DNA from: an uncultured Candidatus Saccharimonas sp.
Lineage (GTDB): Bacteria; Patescibacteriota; Saccharimonadia; Saccharimonadales; AQU-01
DNA length: 64,000 nt
NCBI GenBank assembly: GCA_943358095.1
Contig: CALRGT010000003.1
Span: 6,169-70,168, forward strand
Direction of reading: 5' to 3'
The notes beneath the pieces were generated by a model. That model made no database searches, was not told the DNA's origin, and saw only the letters and a program-made list of their open reading frames with translations. Shown piece by piece: positions 1,470-64,000 of the stretch. A program made the translations under genes and the position numbers. The stretch's first letter is position 1; the number at the start of each line of letters is the position of its first letter.

Positions 1470-1553
1470 GCGCGAGTGGTGGAATGGTAGACACGCTTGT
1501 CTGAGGGGCAAGTGCCGCAAGGTGTGGAGGTTCAAGTCCTCTCTCGCGCACCA
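1470..1553 (+). tRNA. tRNA-Leu(GAG)
   Basis: Acceptor GCGCGAG/CTCGCGC. Anticodon stem CTTGT/GCAAG with loop CTGAGGG. Long variable arm, T-loop TTCAAGT, encoded ACCA. Confidence 0.9.
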
Positions 1554-1566
1554 TAGTAATAGATTA

Positions 1567-1643
1567 GGGCGCTTAGCTCAGTTGGCTAGAGCATCTCGTT
1601 TACACCGAGAGGGTCGGGGGTTCGAGTCCCTCAGCGCCCACCA
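1567..1643 (+). tRNA. tRNA-Val(TAC)
   Basis: Acceptor GGGCGCT/AGCGCCC. D-arm GCTCAGTTGGCTAGAGC. Anticodon stem TCTCG/CGAGA with loop TTTACAC. T-loop TTCGAGT, encoded ACCA. Confidence 0.95.
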
Positions 1644-1652
1644 AGAATAAAA

Positions 1653-1675
1653 CCGACCCTAAAGGTCGGTTTTTT
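1653..1675 (+). terminator. intrinsic terminator after tRNA-Val
   Basis: Hairpin CCGACC-ctaaa-GGTCGG followed by TTTTTT. The 5' arm CCGACCCT is antisense to tRNA-Val AGGGTCGG. Confidence 0.8.
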
Positions 1676-1716
1676 CATGGCTTGGCGATGAAGCAAATGA
1701 ACTGCTTCATTTGCGT

Positions 1717-1832
1717 GGGGCGAAGAACAGTCGGAGCCTTGTGCGCCGGTACTTGGCGCACGGCGAGACGGGGTCGACCGCAAAATGCAAGGCATTTTGA
1801 CGGGTGACTCGAAAGTCCCTCAGCGCCCACCA
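1717..1832 (+). pseudogene. degenerate tRNA-Val-derived copy (tRNA-like remnant)
   Basis: GGGCG...CGCCC acceptor-like pairing. A 7-bp hairpin has loop GGTACTT with TAC central. The last 19 nt, AGTCCCTCAGCGCCCACCA, are identical to the tRNA-Val 3' end. No intact D or T arm. Confidence 0.6.
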
Positions 1833-1840
1833 AAGAAAAA

Positions 1841-1871
1841 TGCCAGACTTTATGTCTGGCATTTTTCTTTT
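1841..1871 (+). terminator. second intrinsic terminator after the tRNA-Val-like remnant
   Basis: Hairpin TGCCAGAC-ttta-tGTCTGGCA followed by TTTTTCTTTTT. Confidence 0.8.
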
Positions 1872-1922: not shown

Positions 1923-2687
1923 ATGGGTACATTAATAACAATTTTGGTAGTTGGATTATTTATTATTCTAGTAAATAGTGTAAGGATTATTAATCAGTAC
2001 GAGCGTGGTGTTGTTTTTCGCCTTGGTAAAGTTCAGGGTGATATTAAGCAGCCCGGCCTAAGATTAATTATCCCAATTATCGACCAAATGCGTAAAGTCC
2101 CACTACGTACAATTACTCTGCCGATCGAAACACAAAAAATTATCACAAAAGACAATGTTTCGATCGATGTTTCGGCTGTTGCTTATTACCAAGTAGCAGA
2201 TCCAATTAAATCAATTGTTGAGATCGAGAATGTTGTTTCGGCAACTTATCAGATCGCTCAGACTACCGTGCGTAATGTTGTTGGCCAGTCAACTATGGAT
2301 AATGTGTTGAGTGAAACTACGGAATTGAACGAAAAAGTTAAGTCTATTTTGGATATAGCTACCGAAAAATGGGGTATATATGTTAGCAATGTTGAGCTAA
2401 AGGACATCCAGCTACCTGAAAGCATGCAGCGAGCTATGGCCAAACAAGCTGAAGCAGAGCGTGAAAAACGTGCAAAAATTATTGCTGCTGAAGGTGAAGC
2501 CCTAAGTGCTGCCAAGTTAGGTGAAGCAGCTGATATCATCAGCGCTCACCCAATTGCATTGCAACTTCGTAATCTCCAGGTTCTTAGTGAAATTGCGGTC
2601 GAAAAGAACTCAACTATCATTTTCCCAAGTCAATTCATGGACACAGTCTCAAGCGTCAAAGAATTCATGGCCAAAGAGACTAAGTAA
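1923..2687 (+). CDS. SPFH/band-7 (stomatin-like, slipin) family protein
   Basis: N-terminal TM helix. Motifs [31 protein letters not shown] and a C-terminal [12 protein letters not shown] coiled region typical of the stomatin/HflK-C family. Confidence 0.9.
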
Positions 2688-2688
2688 A

Positions 2689-3015
2689 GTGTCAGATTCT
2701 AAAACATTAAAAGAATATCAAAAACAAGTCGACGACCAATTGCAGCCTTATTTAAAACCATATTGGGATCCGCTCAGTAACATGGCCAGGCTTACGGAAG
2801 AGGCGGGGGAAGTAGCAAGAATACTCAATCATCAATTTGGCGATAAGCCCAAGAAAGATAATGAAGAGCATGAGGATCTTGCTGACGAGCTCGCCGACAT
2901 TATCTATACGGTCATTTGTTTGGCTAATAGCCAGGGCATAGAACTTGACCCAGCACTAGAAAGGGCGATAGCAAAACTAGAGACAAGAGATGCTGGTAGA
3001 TTTGCTAAGAAGTAG
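2689..3015 (+). CDS. MazG-type nucleotide pyrophosphohydrolase domain protein
   Basis: GTG start 2 nt after the SPFH stop, in frame with ORF 2521-3015. EEAGEVARIL ... ELADIIYTVICLAN is the MazG EExxE/ExxD helix pair. Confidence 0.8.
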   Translation: MSDSKTLKEYQKQVDDQLQPYLKPYWDPLSNMARLTEEAGEVARILNHQFGDKPKKDNEEHEDLADELADIIYTVICLANSQGIELDPALERAIAKLETRDAGRFAKK

Positions 3016-3142: not shown

Positions 3143-3152
3143 AAGTAAAAGT

Positions 3153-3180
3153 CTCAGCCGTAAGGCTGGGGCTTTTTCTT
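3153..3180 (+). terminator. intrinsic terminator after tRNA-Phe
   Basis: Hairpin CTCAGCC-gtaa-GGCTGGG followed by CTTTTTCTTT. Confidence 0.75.
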
Positions 3181-3322
3181 TGGCCTAGGCTTTGCCTAGG
3201 GACTCGAACTGCTACAGTTCGCTAATTCACTGAAAAGTAAGTTTCTTTTCAGTGAATTATATCCTGAGACCGAGTCGCATCGTGCGACGCGGCTCGAGGG
3301 AGTATTCTGGGAGGAGCCTCCA
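3181..3322 (+). repeat. tRNA-Phe-derived trailer (inverted + direct self-fragments)
   Basis: GACTCGAACTG (3201-3211) is the exact reverse complement of the tRNA-Phe T-loop region CAGTTCGAGTC, followed by a direct CAGTTCG. A 14-bp hairpin carries CTGAAAAG (compare anticodon loop CTGAAGAG). It ends with TCTGGGAGGAGCCtCCA versus tRNA TCTGGGAGGAGCCaCCA. Confidence 0.6.
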
Positions 3323-3706: not shown

Positions 3707-3715
3707 AAATTAGAG

Positions 3716-3741
3716 CCCCACGAAAGTGGGGTTTTAATTTT
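3716..3741 (+). terminator. intrinsic terminator after tRNA-Gly
   Basis: Hairpin CCCCAC-gaaa-GTGGGG followed by TTTTAATTTT. Confidence 0.75.
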
Positions 3742-3750
3742 GGTTTGAGA

Positions 3751-3843
3751 TTCTAACCCTTGGCCTCGTCAAAATCAAATAATAGGCCAAGTGTCTTCCT
3801 CGACCGCCTACGGTCGAGGCGTTAGAGTCCCTTTACCCCTAAC
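3751..3843 (+). repeat. tRNA-Gly-derived trailer (inverted + direct self-fragments)
   Basis: TTCTAACCCTTGGCCTCGTC (3751-3770) is the reverse complement of tRNA-Gly GACGAGGCCAAGGGTTAGAg (19/20). Then a direct AGGCCAAG, an inserted 8-bp hairpin CCTCGACC/GGTCGAGG, and GTTAGAGTCCCTTTACCC, 18/18 identical to the tRNA 3' part. Confidence 0.65.
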
Positions 3844-11961: not shown

Positions 11962-12690
11962 CTAGTATTTCCACTGATCAGGTATTTTGTTGATGCACTC
12001 TGGAATTTTCTGTAATTCGTTTAGACCGGATCGGCCAATGCAGCGGATATTCTTCATGGCCTTATTAGTAAAGCTGCCTTGTTCTATTATCGAGCCATCG
12101 TCGGCAATGTAGCTGAAGGGGTCTGCAAAATAGTTGCCAAGGAATTTTGCCGATCCTTCCATGAATGTTTTTGCGCTTGCGGGAACGGAATTACCAAGCC
12201 TAAGCTGTTCGTTTGCCAGTAGGACGCTATTAAGCAAGAAGCTTTTTCGGGGTCCAGCTACATTGTGCAAATCTGATTCTACTACTAGTGTTGCTTCGTT
12301 GGTGGGCCTTGGTTGGCCGAGCTGTGTTGCTATAATCGCTATTTCAACTTTTTCGACATAGTCTTCGTCGTGGCCCATTTCTAATAAATTAGTTCTGGCA
12401 GTTGCTGCGGCCAGAGCCTCCTTGCTGACAAAGCCATTTTTTTGCGGGTCTAGTTGAAAGTCGGCGTCATGCCATAAAATTGCATCGTCAACTACGTCAG
12501 CATCTAGCGTTACTCCAAGCCGGCTCAGATTAGGAATCCGCTTGCTTGCATACTCTCTCATAGACGTCACATGATTCCAATTATGATAGTCAAGATTGTA
12601 GTAGTGAGTCTTTGCTAGCTCTTGGGAGTAGGCCCTAAGTTCGGGAGAAGATTTATCCATTGTTATTTCATTATAATAGAGTATTGTCAA
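11962..12690 (-). CDS. hypothetical protein, possible HD-domain phosphohydrolase
   Basis: H...HD pattern (NWNHVTS ... ILWHDADF). Weak assignment. Confidence 0.4.
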   Translation of the reverse strand: MTILYYNEITMDKSSPELRAYSQELAKTHYYNLDYHNWNHVTSMREYASKRIPNLSRLGVTLDADVVDDAILWHDADFQLDPQKNGFVSKEALAAATARTNLLEMGHDEDYVEKVEIAIIATQLGQPRPTNEATLVVESDLHNVAGPRKSFLLNSVLLANEQLRLGNSVPASAKTFMEGSAKFLGNYFADPFSYIADDGSIIEQGSFTNKAMKNIRCIGRSGLNELQKIPECINKIPDQWKY

Positions 12691-18142: not shown

Positions 18143-18173
18143 ATAAAAACCCTATCAAGTATAGGGTTTTTAT
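18143..18173. terminator. bidirectional hairpin terminator
   Basis: Stem AAAAACCCTAT / ATAGGGTTTTT, loop CAAGT. A second GC-rich hairpin CCACCCG/CGGGTGG (18113-18129) with an A-run lies just upstream. Confidence 0.7.
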
Positions 18174-18176
18174 AAT

Positions 18177-18270
18177 GATGGAGGCACAGAGACAGCCCAC
18201 TTCAATCCGAGCCCTAGCGCCAAGCTGAAGCTTGTCGCGGTCCAGGGCTCGAAGCTCAATAACTTGACCA
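18177..18270 (-). repeat. tRNA-Ala-derived trailer (inverted + direct self-fragments)
   Basis: In tRNA sense: CTTCGAGCCCTGGACC is antisense to tRNA GGTCCAGGGTTCGAG. It is followed by a direct AGGGCTCG and CTGTGCCTCCATCA (tRNA has CTGTAGCTCCACCA). Confidence 0.6.
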
Positions 18271-18298
18271 AAATAAAAACCCATCCTTATGGGATGGG
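18271..18298 (-). terminator. intrinsic terminator after tRNA-Ala
   Basis: On the minus strand, CCCATCC-cataa-GGATGGG followed by TTTTTATTTT. Confidence 0.75.
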
Positions 18299-18307
18299 AT
18301 CTTATTT

Positions 18308-18420: not shown

Positions 18421-18429
18421 ATTATACCA
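18421..18429 (-). promoter_or_regulatory. extended -10 promoter element for tRNA-Ala
   Basis: Minus strand reads TGGTATAAT about 37 nt upstream of the tRNA 5' end. Confidence 0.5.
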
Positions 18430-18503
18430 GTTGGCCAGAGCGCTTAAGCGCATCTTTTATTTTTGCAACAAGTTGCCCCAACTGAGCTTCGTCCCCAAAA
18501 TAA
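18428..18503 (-). repeat. tRNA-Ala-derived leader (direct 5' fragment + inverted D-arm fragment)
   Basis: In tRNA sense: TTTTGGGGACGAAGCTCAGTTGG (tRNA has TTTTGGGGCTGTAGCTCAGTTGG). Then GCGCTCTGGCCAACTGG, antisense to the D-arm CTCAGTTGGCTAGAGCGC (15/18). Confidence 0.6.
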
Positions 18504-26730: not shown

Positions 26731-27510
26731 TTAGTTTTTGGAGCTGAGTGTACCTAGGACTATTATCCAGGCCAATAACGATTTAGCGATTAGGCTGAGC
26801 CAAACATAGGCGCGCTCGCCGTATGCATAGTCCTTCCATTTGCCGATCTTTTTGTACTGTAACCACATGTTGACAGCAAAAGTATTGAACAGTAAGAACG
26901 TTAACAAAAAGCCGAGCTTGGCGTACCACGGTATAGAATCGGCTATATTGCTAGTACTTGCCCAGAAGTATATGCCACCGATTATCCAAGGTACGATGCC
27001 AGCAATAATACCTATATTAAACGGGAACCATGATGTTTTCTTGGTTAGTTGATTGTAACGTTCCATTTCTAGACCCCAGATGTTCATAAGGAAATTAAGA
27101 GTAAAAACAAAAACTACGCTCGGCAACTCGTTTAATCCACCCATCATAAGTAGGACGGTAATCATCAGTGATGAACTGATGGAGTATTCCAGCCAGCGCA
27201 TAGGGTTTATGCCTTTTTTGATATTGGCTTCATAGCGGCGATAGTACATTGGTGAGGCTACGAAAAGATGAAAAAAGGCTGCAACTAGCAGAAATAGTGG
27301 ACCAACAACTGCTATAGGTATATCAACAAGTATCTTGGTCGCAAAAGTGAAGTCACCATCAGGAGCCACATCAAAAAAGCGAGTAATAATAGGTATCTTG
27401 AGCGAATAGTTCAAAATTATGAGCATTATCGTCGCCTGCAAAAGATGCACGGAACCCATAATAATATTAAATCGTCGAAGTTTTTTGGTCTGGTTGTTTT
27501 TAAATATCAT
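26731..27510 (-). CDS. heliorhodopsin
   Basis: 7 TM. Recalled heliorhodopsin 48C12 motifs are all present: FNxxxGxVHLLQ, MRWLEYSISSSLMI, GIIAGIVPWI, GERAYVWLSLIAKSLLAW (Schiff-base Lys). Confidence 0.9.
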   Translation of the reverse strand: MIFKNNQTKKLRRFNIIMGSVHLLQATIMLIILNYSLKIPIITRFFDVAPDGDFTFATKILVDIPIAVVGPLFLLVAAFFHLFVASPMYYRRYEANIKKGINPMRWLEYSISSSLMITVLLMMGGLNELPSVVFVFTLNFLMNIWGLEMERYNQLTKKTSWFPFNIGIIAGIVPWIIGGIYFWASTSNIADSIPWYAKLGFLLTFLLFNTFAVNMWLQYKKIGKWKDYAYGERAYVWLSLIAKSLLAWIIVLGTLSSKN

Positions 27511-49402: not shown

Positions 49403-49494
49403 AAAATATAAAGAGTGTAGCGAGGGTTCTAGCCCAATGACCTACCGGCAACCTACTAATTAATAGCAAGGTGCTCCATCTAGTCCGTAGTTAT
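49403..49494 (+). promoter_or_regulatory. SAM-I-type riboswitch aptamer upstream of metK
   Basis: The conserved core is readable: AAGAG-tgtagc-GAGGG-ttct-AGCCC-aatGA-cctaCCGGCAACC-...-GGTGCT. The P4 region looks short. Confidence 0.75.
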
Positions 49495-49495
49495 T

Positions 49496-50668
49496 ATGGA
49501 AACGATATTTTGCCAAAACATATCCTTTCCATATATTCACGGGGAAGGATATTTTATTTCAAACTCTACAAAAACAACACTATTTACTAGTGAATCAGTT
49601 GCCGCAGGGCATCCAGACAAAATCTGTGACGCCATAAGTGATGCAATTCTTGACGCAGCCTTAGCGCAAGATCCAAAAACGAGAGCCGGTATTGAGGCGG
49701 TTGCTGGCGCAAATCAGATCAGCCTATTTGGTGAAATTACCACTACCGCCAAACTAGACTATGAGGCGATTGTTCGAGAAGTTATTAAATCTCAAGGTTA
49801 CATTGAGCCAAAGTGGGGCTTTTCTGAAGAGTCAAAGTTCACAAGTTATTTACATCAACAATCGCCAGAGATATCGCAGGGCGTTGACCAAGATGGGGCT
49901 GGCGATCAAGGAATGATGTTTGGTTATGCCTGTAACGAAACCCCAGAACTTATGCCGATGCCGATTACTTTGGCACATGCTTTAGCGCGTAGAATCGACG
50001 AAGTCCGTCAGAAAAAAATACTCGATTATATCCGACCCGACGGCAAGGCGCAGGTTACTGTCGTCTACGAAGATGGCATACCTACTGCTATAGCTAACGC
50101 CGTTATTGCAGTAGCACATTCCGAGCAAGTTAGCGCCGATCAAGTTCGTGCTGGAGTTATTGCTGAGATTATTACCCCAGTTTTAGCTAAATATGGCTTC
50201 ACAGTGAGCGACGAAAATATAACTGTAAATGGCACAGGCTTATGGCATATACCAGGTCCAGAATCAGACGCAGGATTAACTGGTAGAAAAATTGTAGTAG
50301 ATACATATGGTGGTTACGCTCGTGTTGGAGGAGGCGCCTTTAGCGGTAAAGATCCGAGCAAGGTGGACCGTTCTGGCGCTTATGCGGCACGATATATTGC
50401 TAAAAATATTGTTGCTGCCGGTCTAGCGGATAAATGTGAGGTTGGTCTGGCATATGTAATTGGTAAGCCGAATCCTTTAATGCAAACAATTGAAACATTT
50501 GGAACTAGTAAAGTTTCTGACAAAGAACTTTACGACTTCAAAGATAAATTGATAGATACTTCGGTACGAGGAATAGTCGAAAAATTGCAGCTACTTAGGC
50601 CGATTTATTCTGCGACAAGCGCATATGGACATTTTGGTAAGCCAGAATTGCCGTGGGAGCAGGGGTAG
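49496..50668 (+). CDS. metK: S-adenosylmethionine synthetase
   Basis: LFTSESVAAGHPDKICD, GAGDQGMMFGYA and GGGAFSGKDPSKVDRS motifs. The ORF-track ATG 49496 lies inside the riboswitch platform. The conserved N-terminus is better served by ATT at 49556 (see findings). Confidence 0.95.
   Translation: METIFCQNISFPYIHGEGYFISNSTKTTLFTSESVAAGHPDKICDAISDAILDAALAQDPKTRAGIEAVAGANQISLFGEITTTAKLDYEAIVREVIKSQGYIEPKWGFSEESKFTSYLHQQSPEISQGVDQDGAGDQGMMFGYACNETPELMPMPITLAHALARRIDEVRQKKILDYIRPDGKAQVTVVYEDGIPTAIANAVIAVAHSEQVSADQVRAGVIAEIITPVLAKYGFTVSDENITVNGTGLWHIPGPESDAGLTGRKIVVDTYGGYARVGGGAFSGKDPSKVDRSGAYAARYIAKNIVAAGLADKCEVGLAYVIGKPNPLMQTIETFGTSKVSDKELYDFKDKLIDTSVRGIVEKLQLLRPIYSATSAYGHFGKPELPWEQG
49520..49559 (+). 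terminator. riboswitch expression-platform hairpin (terminator/SD sequestrator)
   Basis: 11-bp stem ATATCCTTTCC / GGGAAGGATAT followed by TTTTATTT. The 3' arm contains the GGAAGGA Shine-Dalgarno. Confidence 0.7.
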
Positions 50669-63370: not shown

Positions 63371-63395
63371 GTTTAAATTAATGTACAATATAGGT

Positions 63396-64000
63396 ATGCA
63401 AGAAATTATATTATTATTTTTGGTAGTCAATGCCGGCTTAGTAATATTTTTAATTCGATCCAAGAAACCTAGTCAAGACAGTCAGTCGCAATTAATGCTC
63501 AAGGCCGACATACAAGCTATGAGCGCTCAAGTTGAGAAGTTGCAAGAGAAGCTTAGCGGGCAGCTCGACACCAAACTAGACAAGAATCAAGAAAGTATGT
63601 CGCGTCAGCTAGCGTCAAGCGCCAAACTAGTAGCCGAAGTGACAGAGCGTTTGACTCGGCTTGATGAGACAAATAAGAGAGTTGTTGATGTTGCTGACGA
63701 GCTAAAGCAATTACAAAATGTTTTGCAGAATCCAAAACAGCGCGGAGTTTTGGGTGAGTTTTACTTAGAGCAAATACTTCAGAATTTATTGCCGCCAGGA
63801 TCATATGAACTTCAATATAAATTAACTGATGGATTTATAGTTGACGCCGTAATTATGCTAGACGGTAAAATGTTGCCGATTGACAGTAAGTTTAGTTTAG
63901 AGAACTATAACCGTTTGATAGATGCAAAAGGCGCAGAACGCAAATTATTGGAACGAGCCTTTAAGGATGATCTCAAAAAGCGCATCGACGAAACAGCAAA
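63396..64000 (+). CDS. rmuC: DNA recombination protein RmuC (3' end outside window)
   Basis: N-terminal TM, coiled coil, then NPKQRGVLGEFYLEQIL ... DAVIMLDGKMLPIDSKF, typical of RmuC. Open to the window end. Confidence 0.85.
   Translation, partial: MQEIILLFLVVNAGLVIFLIRSKKPSQDSQSQLMLKADIQAMSAQVEKLQEKLSGQLDTKLDKNQESMSRQLASSAKLVAEVTERLTRLDETNKRVVDVADELKQLQNVLQNPKQRGVLGEFYLEQILQNLLPPGSYELQYKLTDGFIVDAVIMLDGKMLPIDSKFSLENYNRLIDAKGAERKLLERAFKDDLKKRIDETA

Follow-up and report, generated by a model that had tools for sequence, protein, structure and literature searches.

Directly downstream of its intact tRNA-Val(TAC) gene, the 64-kb stretch of uncultured Candidatus Saccharimonas sp. DNA analysed here (all of it referred to as the window) carries a trailer made up of a predicted hairpin terminator (T1), a folded element, an exact copy of the gene's own 3' end and a second predicted terminator (T2; Table 1). 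The gene is one of eight tRNAs called in the window by ARAGORN and Rfam, the genuine ones scoring 50-69 bits with the Rfam tRNA model RF00005. Nucleotides 1644-1832 are a ~190-bp, strain-variable cassette, devoid of open reading frames (ORFs) and lodged in the 3' end of tRNA-Val. Within it, 1706-1808 belongs, as a diverged copy, to a multi-copy family designated R1, whose fold is conserved and strand-specific; it occupies the former T-loop. The working tRNA-Val now ends in a duplicate of its original nucleotides, after which come T1 and a short stretch of the 3' end in inverted orientation.

The last ~20-24 nt of the intact gene constitute one copy of a direct repeat; the other, AGTCCCTCAGCGCCCACCA (1814-1832), is identical to tRNA positions 59-77 at 19 of 19 nucleotides (local score 38, where the best of 200 shuffles reached 25; blastn-short E = 1.4e-5 over the whole window). 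An earlier note on this DNA had singled out this exact copy, a hairpin terminator directly after tRNA-Val and another one beyond the copy, and all three are present (CCGACC/GGTCGG at 1653-1669; a hairpin at 1833-1871). T1 and T2 are GC-rich hairpins with flanking A- and T-runs, evident both in the sequence and in the minimum free energy (MFE) fold, and are predicted to terminate transcription, T1 being the terminator that would now serve tRNA-Val. A simple terminator pattern scan lists T1 in the minus orientation only, because its T-run is absorbed into the stem by pairing with the A-run. The trailer as a whole folds well below shuffled sequences (z = -9.8, RNA MFE). T1 is also the centre of an imperfect palindrome that extends back into the tRNA-Val 3' end (inverted self-match, insert positions 6-48). 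Its arms, CCGACCCT and GGTCGG, are antisense and sense of tRNA-Val positions 44-51; the antisense match that had been noticed in the T1 arm is there, over 8 nt, but by itself lies at chance level (the 95th percentile of the null is 10 matched nt). These arms and the 10-nt diverged inverted copy at 1678-1687 are all that the Val locus has at the place where canonical loci of the family carry inverted ~42-77 and direct ~43-54; the inverted piece is the counterpart of their antisense segment of approximately tRNA positions 42-77. A likeness between the left arms of T1 and T2 (9/15) is not significant and was discarded.

The notion that 1717-1832 is a wrecked tRNA-Val applies to its end only: 1809-1832 (the 19 identical nucleotides preceded by TCGAA) is tRNA-derived, but the rest is a foreign element, and RF00005 finds no match in the trailer (1644-1900) at E<=10. 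Other than 1809-1832, the short inverted piece at 1678-1687 is the trailer's sole tRNA-Val-derived sequence. The hairpin GTGCGCC/GGCGCAC, whose loop had been taken to retain the Val anticodon, exists, but it is hairpin 2 (H2; 1741-1761) of the R1 element and its TAC is a coincidence. AAAATGC/GCATTTT (1783-1798), taken for an interruption of the T-arm, likewise exists but belongs to hairpin 3 (H3) of the same element; the proposed GGGCG acceptor pairing falls inside the unrelated conserved element. The element begins 63 nt past tRNA-Val, terminates in GTGAC (1804-1808) and is followed by TCGAA and tRNA positions 59-77.

The SPFH gene of the window (1923-2687) assigns this DNA to Candidatus Saccharibacteria. 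The decisive comparison is with close strains, those whose SPFH protein is 97-99% identical to the window's. Orthologous loci were compared for empty sites, a check that the earlier note had proposed, and such sites were found in L082, L100 and L102, where tRNA-Val is followed directly by T2 with no insert between (L082:912-968 and window 1814-1870 are 98% identical). Since tRNA-Val runs straight into T2 in these strains, T2 must be the ancestral terminator and 1809-1832 the original end of the gene, 1644-1808 and one copy of the repeat having been inserted. In L084, L093 and L098 a 170-nt insert is present that differs from the window's by 2 mismatches (98.8% identity), against 90-96% identity in the genes on either side; an R1 match lies at the same place in these three strains and in L104. 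The ~190-bp ORF-less cassette is all that separates a filled from an empty allele. Each of the two alleles recurs in independent assemblies (ENA, NCBI, Logan), and the 19-nt repeat is shorter than the assembly k-mer. A second, unrelated cassette (B) is located 3' of T2 in some strains and terminates in a further copy of GTCCCTCAGCGCCCACCA; all four combinations (A only, B only, A and B, neither) are seen across strains. No larger element lies between the tRNA-Val repeats among strains at ~40 loci. Relatives at ~70% nucleotide identity have the same tRNAs without trailers, with Phe and Gly 1-70 nt apart and the Leu-Val pair inverted; the more distant Saccharibacteria L002-L009 yield neither a Val-type trailer nor an R1 match. 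The plain second tRNA-Val gene that relatives might have carried at this locus was found in none of those examined.

The R1 family emerged as a ~105-nt sequence common to the Val trailer and to inserts at other tRNAs in relatives (a 5' pseudo-Phe and a Gly trailer in L114/L116; a 5' pseudo-Leu in L084). A metagenome scan with a pattern of invariant motifs returned at least 120 loci with 122 copies and 112 distinct cores among the matches listed. Covariation in an alignment of 48 diverse copies specifies a fold of three hairpins, with compensatory changes at 27 of 35 pairs: 96.8% of the alignment cells are paired, against 27-47% with slid partners, and 0 of 500 shuffles reach the observed values. 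Variable G.U cells (49, and one invariant G.U pair) far outnumber A.C cells (8), and the tRNA-sense strand is therefore the folding strand. The embedded element is clearly under structural constraint. The covariance model built from these features (three hairpins, junctions ..GGYCGGA.. and GAGRCGGGGTCG, 3' GTGAC; its E-values are rough, from a short calibration) finds one significant match in the window with filters off, the element of the Val trailer, which is the sole one at E < 0.4. This copy is diverged: its hairpin 1 is short and its junctions, AGTCGGA and GAGACGGGGTCG, are as in a second subfamily. In 509 kb of metagenome loci the model finds 74 matches, up to 5 per ~14 kb; copies that share a locus have 70-93% identity to one another and are in part mosaics. 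A weak, non-significant R1-like match at window 12460-12533 (-; 12.1 bits, E = 0.45) is probably due to chance.

No match to R1 was found in the collections searched. The window copy and a canonical copy match no Rfam 15 family at E<=10, the group I/II intron and small-ribozyme models included in a like search of window and canonical copy; across the window, four related loci and the canonical copy, Rfam at gathering threshold and at E<=10 returns only genuine tRNAs and a SAM (S-adenosylmethionine) riboswitch. blastn of the canonical copy against annotated phage and plasmid collections gave no match, a literature search that included the motif strings found no description, and the family is apparently undescribed. 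Nor was a mobilising enzyme found. The cassette has no ORF; 49 ORFs of the window contain no integrase, as the earlier note had it, and by Pfam no recombinase, transposase or reverse transcriptase (RT) domain, and the 574-aa ORF of L082 gave no recombinase match in the same test. When 741 ORFs of 120 metagenome loci are clustered all against all, no neighbour resembling a transposase, integrase or RT recurs; the biggest cluster near R1 copies is pilin-like. A looser DNA pattern applied to viral contigs gave 28 matches, all of them chance occurrences in GC-rich coding DNA.

The surroundings of R1 are regular. Copies occupy the T, D, anticodon or variable loop of a tRNA copy that is truncated and located 25-95 nt from the intact gene for the same tRNA, and at least 14 tRNA identities host R1 neighbours. 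Among the matches listed, an intact tRNA within 400 nt is on the same strand for 93 of 122 copies and on the opposite strand for 8. Between the truncated and the intact copies stands an inverted tRNA fragment, accompanied by a terminator in loci of the downstream type and by a promoter in those of the upstream type. The downstream type reads: intact tRNA, T1 as palindrome centre, inverted ~77 to 42, direct ~43-54, element, direct 57-77 with CCA, second terminator, with 63-95 nt between tRNA and element. In the upstream type a promoter and the 5' part of the tRNA come first; the element follows, lodged in one of the D, anticodon, variable and T loops, and after it come a further 10-40 nt of the tRNA, often folding back into an antisense piece, then TATAAT and the intact tRNA. 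An example of this type is provided by L084:342-567, 5' of tRNA-Leu-GAG, which comprises a native-like promoter, a 39-nt tRNA 5' fragment, a canonical R1 copy scoring 82 bits, pieces of tRNA-Leu, a TATAAT box and finally the intact gene; DNA to the left of this region is only ~66% identical to the window, which indicates a recombination breakpoint.

Two tRNA nucleotides are missing at every R1 tRNA site, the base before the element is G in 86 of 112 copies, and the ends are GTGAG... and ...GTGAC, with neither terminal inverted repeats (TIRs) nor target-site duplications (TSDs). Whichever loop (D, anticodon, T) is occupied, the truncated side stops 10-40 nt beyond the element; since truncation always falls just past it, the rearrangement junction tracks the element. 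T1 is recognisably T2-like in 6 of 18 testable loci, where ~1 is expected. A few copies, in L150 and L161, run antisense to the tRNA fragment, and a GC-rich subfamily of 125-126 nt resides in ORF-like DNA (L164:2710-2835, L243:7262-7387, L227:1347-1472). No stop codon interrupts the frame across the element in L164 and L243; in L227 an opposite-strand ORF is restored once 125 nt are deleted. The antisense and ORF-located copies suggest insertion at the level of DNA and not a spliced intron. An initial assignment of the L164/L243 site to a Walker B 'DEAHR' motif was withdrawn: both ORFs stop 30-40 aa further on, the right flanks are alike and the boundary is ambiguous. At L230:1750-1851 and L172:~717-818, R1 copies adjoin a sequence starting ggggcggaccgg that may be a tmRNA or another tRNA-like gene.

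The claim that the layout recurs at tRNA-Phe, tRNA-Gly and tRNA-Ala of the window stands strongly for Gly (antisense 22 nt with 1 mismatch, direct 18 nt exact, the full family pattern) and clearly for Phe (direct 16/17, antisense 11 nt), but only weakly for Ala (antisense 13/14, then a degenerate 3'-end copy matching at 14/18 and a terminator). The Ala matches are singly near the chance threshold; their order and spacing agree with the family layout, and the insert is a ~14-nt remnant. Upstream scars of tRNA-Ala resemble the upstream-type layout of L084, L114 and L173. The Phe, Gly and Ala trailers share order and spacing with the Val trailer and have different T-arm inserts, none of which matches R1 (covariance model, filters off). 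That the four trailers have no sequence in common is true within the window, R1 matching Val only, but the Val insert belongs to a family found at many tRNAs elsewhere. The Phe insert is 84 nt long here and has 49- and 56-nt variants in relatives, with common ends CTAAT...AGTAT. At L092:2713-3231 the Phe cassette occurs twice in tandem (copies ~88% identical), each copy with an internal partial repeat (AGTTCG..insert..TCTGGGAGG) and then a full 3'-end copy. The Gly trailer is absent in L099, L100 and L109, which have the ancestral terminator instead, as has the distant L006; tRNA-Gly of L113 has a different cassette, then the ancestral terminator. The tRNA-Cys/Leu-TAA and Gln genes of the window end in plain terminators.

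Table 1. Features of the tRNA-Val locus and of the other tRNA trailers in the window.
Feature	Position	Strand	Basis or composition
Intact tRNA-Val(TAC)	1567-1643	+	ARAGORN; Rfam tRNA model, 69.1 bits; 100% identity in all close strains
T1 hairpin CCGACC-CTAAA-GGTCGG, A-run before, T-run after	1649-1675 (hairpin proper 1653-1669)	+	Sequence; MFE fold
Short diverged inverted copy of tRNA 3' terminus, TGGCTTGGCG vs TGGTGGGCG	1678-1687	+	Read from sequence; alone not significant
Additional hairpin GATGAAGCA/TGCTTCAT	1687-1710	+	MFE fold
Three-hairpin element, diverged R1 member	1706-1808 (103 nt)	+	R1 covariance model, 33.5 bits, E = 4.6e-6
Displaced original tRNA-Val 3' end: T-loop remainder TCGAA and exact 19-nt copy of 59-77 including CCA	1809-1832	+	Self-comparison; empty-site strains
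T2, ancestral tRNA-Val terminator	1833-1871	+	Directly 3' of tRNA in L082, L100, L102; MFE fold
tRNA-Phe trailer	3143-3322	+	T1; hairpin; antisense 51-61 (3201-3211); direct 51-57 (3215-3221); T-loop insert; displaced 3' end
tRNA-Phe insert (84 nt, in T-loop) and displaced 3' end TCTGGGAGGAGCCTCCA	3222-3305; 3306-3322	+	
tRNA-Gly trailer	3707-3838	+	T1; inverted tRNA 41-62 (3749-3770); direct 45-55; 29-nt T-arm hairpin; direct 54-71 (3821-3838)
tRNA-Ala trailer, degraded layout	18143-18307	-	T1; inverted 46-59 (18239-18252); degenerate 3' end GTCTCTGTGCCTCCATCA (18176-18193); second terminator
tRNA-Ala upstream scars	18428-18496	-	19-nt 5' fragment GGGGACGAAGCTCAGTTGG (18478-18496); 18-nt antisense D-arm copy (18428-18445) directly before TATAAT

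The neighbourhood of these genes varies among relatives. The tRNA-Leu/Val pair (window 1470-1643) is on the opposite strand relative to SPFH in distant relatives (L005:3478-3672, L008:3683-3844), and the neighbours of SPFH vary by lineage, always with tRNAs at the breakpoints (e.g., tRNA-Ala or Ddl in L002 and L114). A MazG-family gene located between SPFH and tRNA-Phe (window 2689-3015) is missing in L082-L087, which have ~24 nt instead. Close strains have an ORF of 559-584 aa between the tRNA-Val cassettes and SPFH (L082:1156-2880 (-), L084, L098, L102 and others); it has no Pfam match and lies outside the cassette repeats, and the window has 21 unique nt in its place (1872-1892). The mobile element at L109:1780-9881 (on the same contig as L099), the only genuine integrative element encountered in this lineage, encodes a large serine recombinase of 540 aa and a DNA methylase and has a DnaD/RepO-like gene; it adjoins tRNA-Gly and its ancestral terminator and leaves no tRNA repeat; the sequence cttgattg..ggtttcaacct beside it, found also twice in L113:6096-6200 and in L006, may be its attachment (att) site.

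The Val trailer is best read neither as a scar left by an integrase at an att site, nor as a second gene in decay, nor as a tRNA mimic that has been conserved. The account that we prefer, and to which we would give slightly better than even chances, is that R1 is a non-autonomous mobile element, that fold-back strand-switching preserves the intact tRNA gene, and that the cassette is afterwards subject to loss or exchange through its repeats. R1 would enter the hairpin loops of tRNA genes as a single-stranded nucleic acid, RNA or single-stranded DNA. Its entry, or a break nearby, would be resolved by strand-switching (fold-back) at a terminator or promoter-proximal hairpin, giving a direct-inverted-direct triplication of the adjoining gene segment and leaving a complete tRNA gene next to the interrupted one. 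Recombination, at the 19-nt repeats or in flanking homology, might later remove cassettes or swap them from strain to strain, and the Phe, Gly and Ala trailers would be scars of the same type with other or degraded inserts. The account is supported by the polymorphism of the cassette, the assortment of A and B, the many family members next to tRNAs, the regular anatomy, the strand-specificity of the fold, the antisense and ORF-located copies and the lack of a recombinase, transposase or RT among the ORFs searched in the window and near the copies; fold-back is supported by the position of T1 at the palindrome centre and by its resemblance to T2 in 6/18 loci. Two other sources of the inverted copy were considered and rejected: self-primed reverse transcription of the pre-tRNA fails on the inverted downstream spacer, and a hairpin-opening (P-nucleotide-like) model predicts the wrong sense/antisense order.

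Several facts weigh against this account. No excision product, circle or recent identical R1 copy was seen, and with copies in one locus only 70-93% identical, current mobility is not demonstrated. The window copy is diverged, scoring 33.5 bits against ~100 for the canonical element, and is without the direct 43-54 segment; fold-back at T2 is not demonstrated for the Val locus, its T1 and T2 not being detectably related. Presence and absence among strains can come from deletion between the 19-nt repeats alone, and a cassette more conserved than its flanks could reflect function rather than spread. The metagenome sample was picked by a pattern fixing three motifs, whose conservation is accordingly by construction, and its contigs are called Patescibacteria-type, with an established taxonomy for a minority at most.

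A bolder version, possible but more readily doubted than believed, makes R1 a new class of selfish structured nucleic acid that invades the loops of tRNA and tRNA-like genes and survives by forcing or exploiting the fold-back duplication, the Phe, Gly and Ala inserts probably being of the same kind. The three-hairpin core would then be the active moiety, whether as ribozyme, single-strand recombination substrate or guide-RNA scaffold; in the last case, flanking tRNA-derived segments could steer a nuclease or recombinase encoded in trans to tRNA genes. Such an element would also be the cause of the tRNA-anchored rearrangements that scramble Saccharibacteria gene order.

Retention by selection of a host-functional, tRNA-linked small RNA (a processing or chaperone cofactor, a decoy of nucleases that attack tRNA or an antisense regulator of tRNA, to which the flanking tRNA-derived pieces would lend tRNA-like ends or something to pair with) is an unlikely explanation, although strong strand-specific covariation, near-invariant joining segments and conservation of the cassette above that of neighbouring genes are what it would predict. 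The inverted fragment is predicted to be able to pair with the tRNA 3' third, and the upstream-type element, predicted to be co-transcribed with the intact tRNA because TATAAT but no terminator intervenes, would be its leader. However, the Val cassette is absent from near-identical strains and the Gly cassette from others, distant Saccharibacteria (L002-L009) have none, and copy number and host tRNA differ between genomes; the earlier suggestion that the trailer as a whole is a functional tRNA mimic or anti-tRNA is unsupported in view of the same absences. Moreover, the window copy sits behind a terminator, some copies are antisense or in ORF-like DNA, and the Gly and Ala trailers hold only remnants at the same position.

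It is decidedly unlikely that the trailer is a classical att scar, in which an integrative element (phage, ICE or island) with a tyrosine or serine integrase entered at the T-loop, brought a replacement for the 3' end and terminator and later shrank by deletion to <200 bp, R1 being what is left of an attP arm. At many integrase sites in tRNA genes the repeat extends from the T-loop to CCA (tRNA sublocation classes), exactly as here. The earlier note had listed such a scar among its explanations, and the direct repeat, the displaced original end and terminator and the empty sites are all in its favour, as are the tandem cassette arrays bounded by tRNA 3' ends, which resemble serial integrations (10.1101/2020.12.28.424599; 10.1101/2022.07.05.498093), and the serine-recombinase element at tRNA-Gly of a sister strain. 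Nevertheless, in none of the strains, at the ~40 loci compared, does anything larger lie between the repeats, the alleles with and without the cassette being 190 bp apart; there is no integrase or other recombinase in the window and no match in the phage and plasmid collections; and no tRNA repeat accompanies the element of L109. The same element at the same 63-95-nt spacing is shared by more than 90 independent loci, which random deletion would not yield. It is met with at 14 or more tRNA identities, not only 3' of genes but also 5' of them and in antisense, and its sites include the D, anticodon and variable loops; its compensatory pairs indicate a single-stranded fold, not a duplex protein-binding site.

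Redundancy could also have come first, with spontaneous duplications (fold-back or tandem) of 3' or 5' portions of tRNA genes arising at terminator and promoter hairpins and unrelated small hairpin elements landing later in the spare copy; inserts would be confined to the redundant copy because insertion into the intact gene is lethal. The homology of T1 and T2 in some loci, the four different inserts at the same place in the window's four trailers, and the T-loop being the only target that downstream-type copies offer and the only loop used in them fit such a sequence of events. It is nonetheless improbable: the truncation point follows the element, unexpectedly if duplication preceded, and no insert-free partial duplicate was seen, though without a systematic search.

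A second tRNA-Val gene in decay is next to negligible, as is an artefact of chance or of assembly: the last 19 nt are complete, and the MFE fold of the trailer predicts a GGGGCG/CGCCC pairing like that of an acceptor stem, but no relative has a second tRNA-Val here, RF00005 is silent at E<=10 and the middle belongs to a foreign family, while both alleles recur in independent assemblies, with a repeat below the assembly k-mer. The related suggestion of a decaying local duplication captures the direct, inverted and direct copies of the gene's 3' third but not the foreign conserved element in their midst.

Partial tRNA genes beside complete ones are the footprint of integrative elements of 9-23 kb (10.1101/2022.07.05.498093), and tycheposons, which pile up at tRNAs, leave a tRNA-fragment footprint (10.1101/2020.12.28.424599). 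The R1 loci share with both a 3'-end repeat, a displaced original end, tandem arrays, and rearrangements or inversions ending at tRNAs (10.1101/2022.07.05.498093; 10.1101/2020.12.28.424599). Those elements, however, measure 9-23 kb or 10-20 kb and have an integrase, whereas the Val cassette is ~190 bp without an ORF. Unlike them, Val-type cassettes have an inverted tRNA segment between the repeats and a folded element in the loop of the partial copy, and R1 is one element at many tRNAs, in four loops and on either side of the gene. The trailer is filed under tRNA-anchored mobile-element scars because the footprint is shared; the agent, with no ORF, an inverted middle copy and a ~100-nt folded element, differs, and there is a real chance that the R1 element itself is a new class.

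Small, hairpin-rich, non-autonomous repeats of reduced or compact genomes include the Rickettsia palindromic elements, repetitive extragenic palindromes and bacterial interspersed mosaic elements (REP/BIME), palindrome-associated transposable elements (PATEs) derived from IS200/IS605, and miniature inverted-repeat transposable elements (MITEs). By general features R1 resembles these in being ~100-125 nt long, multi-copy and ORF-less with internal hairpins, in its precise ends GTGA...GTGAC, in the open ORF-like frame of some copies and in a strand bias of single-strand type. It differs in lacking TIR and TSD and in the 2 tRNA nt missing at the site, in conserving internal junctions and stems instead of ends, in targeting a tRNA loop and in being tied to partial gene duplication. 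Bearing on a possible kinship with IS200/IS605-type single-strand elements (PATE-like) in particular are the strand-specific fold, the G before 86/112 copies and the sense:antisense ratio of 93:8; no transposase is found in the window or near the copies.

Introns in tRNA genes are plentiful in Patescibacteria (PMC13011429), and like tRNA introns (group I, or the archaeal type at bulge-helix-bulge motifs) R1 is structured and placed in tRNA loops, mostly on the tRNA-sense strand. At ~100 nt it is, however, too small for group I and matches no Rfam intron; the interrupted copies are truncated and stand beside an intact gene, a T-loop of 7 nt is not regained with any pair of splice sites, and some copies are antisense.

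Inverted triplications can form by template switching at short inverted repeats (fold-back, or origin-dependent inverted-repeat amplification (ODIRA), and duplication-inverted triplication-duplication, DUP-TRP/INV-DUP, rearrangements). The R1 loci are alike in the direct-inverted-direct arrangement of the tRNA 3' third, in having one junction on the T1 hairpin and in the T1/T2 similarity of some loci; they differ in measuring tens of nucleotides and not kilobases, in a third copy that always has an insert and, for the Val locus of the window, in unrelated T1 and T2.

Genes for tRNAs are the classic landing pads of large integrative elements, and here the same signature comes from a folded element of ~100 nt without a protein gene, in bacteria with some of the smallest known genomes. 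If mobile, R1 would show a novel means of living on an essential single-copy gene that leaves the host alive. It likely drives the synteny breaks at tRNAs in these lineages, and its loci are a source of misannotated tRNA fragments. The covarying core, which belongs to no Rfam family, may be a ribozyme, a scaffold for guide RNAs or a site of single-strand recombination, and is a candidate for a new one of these.

Three other features of the window deserve mention: a heliorhodopsin gene at 26731-27510 (-); a SAM riboswitch at 49403-49511 (+), just 5' of and slightly overlapping the listed start of an S-adenosylmethionine synthetase ORF (49496-50668); and, at the end of the window, the start of an RmuC-family gene (63381-63998, +), RmuC having been linked to inversions at short inverted repeats.

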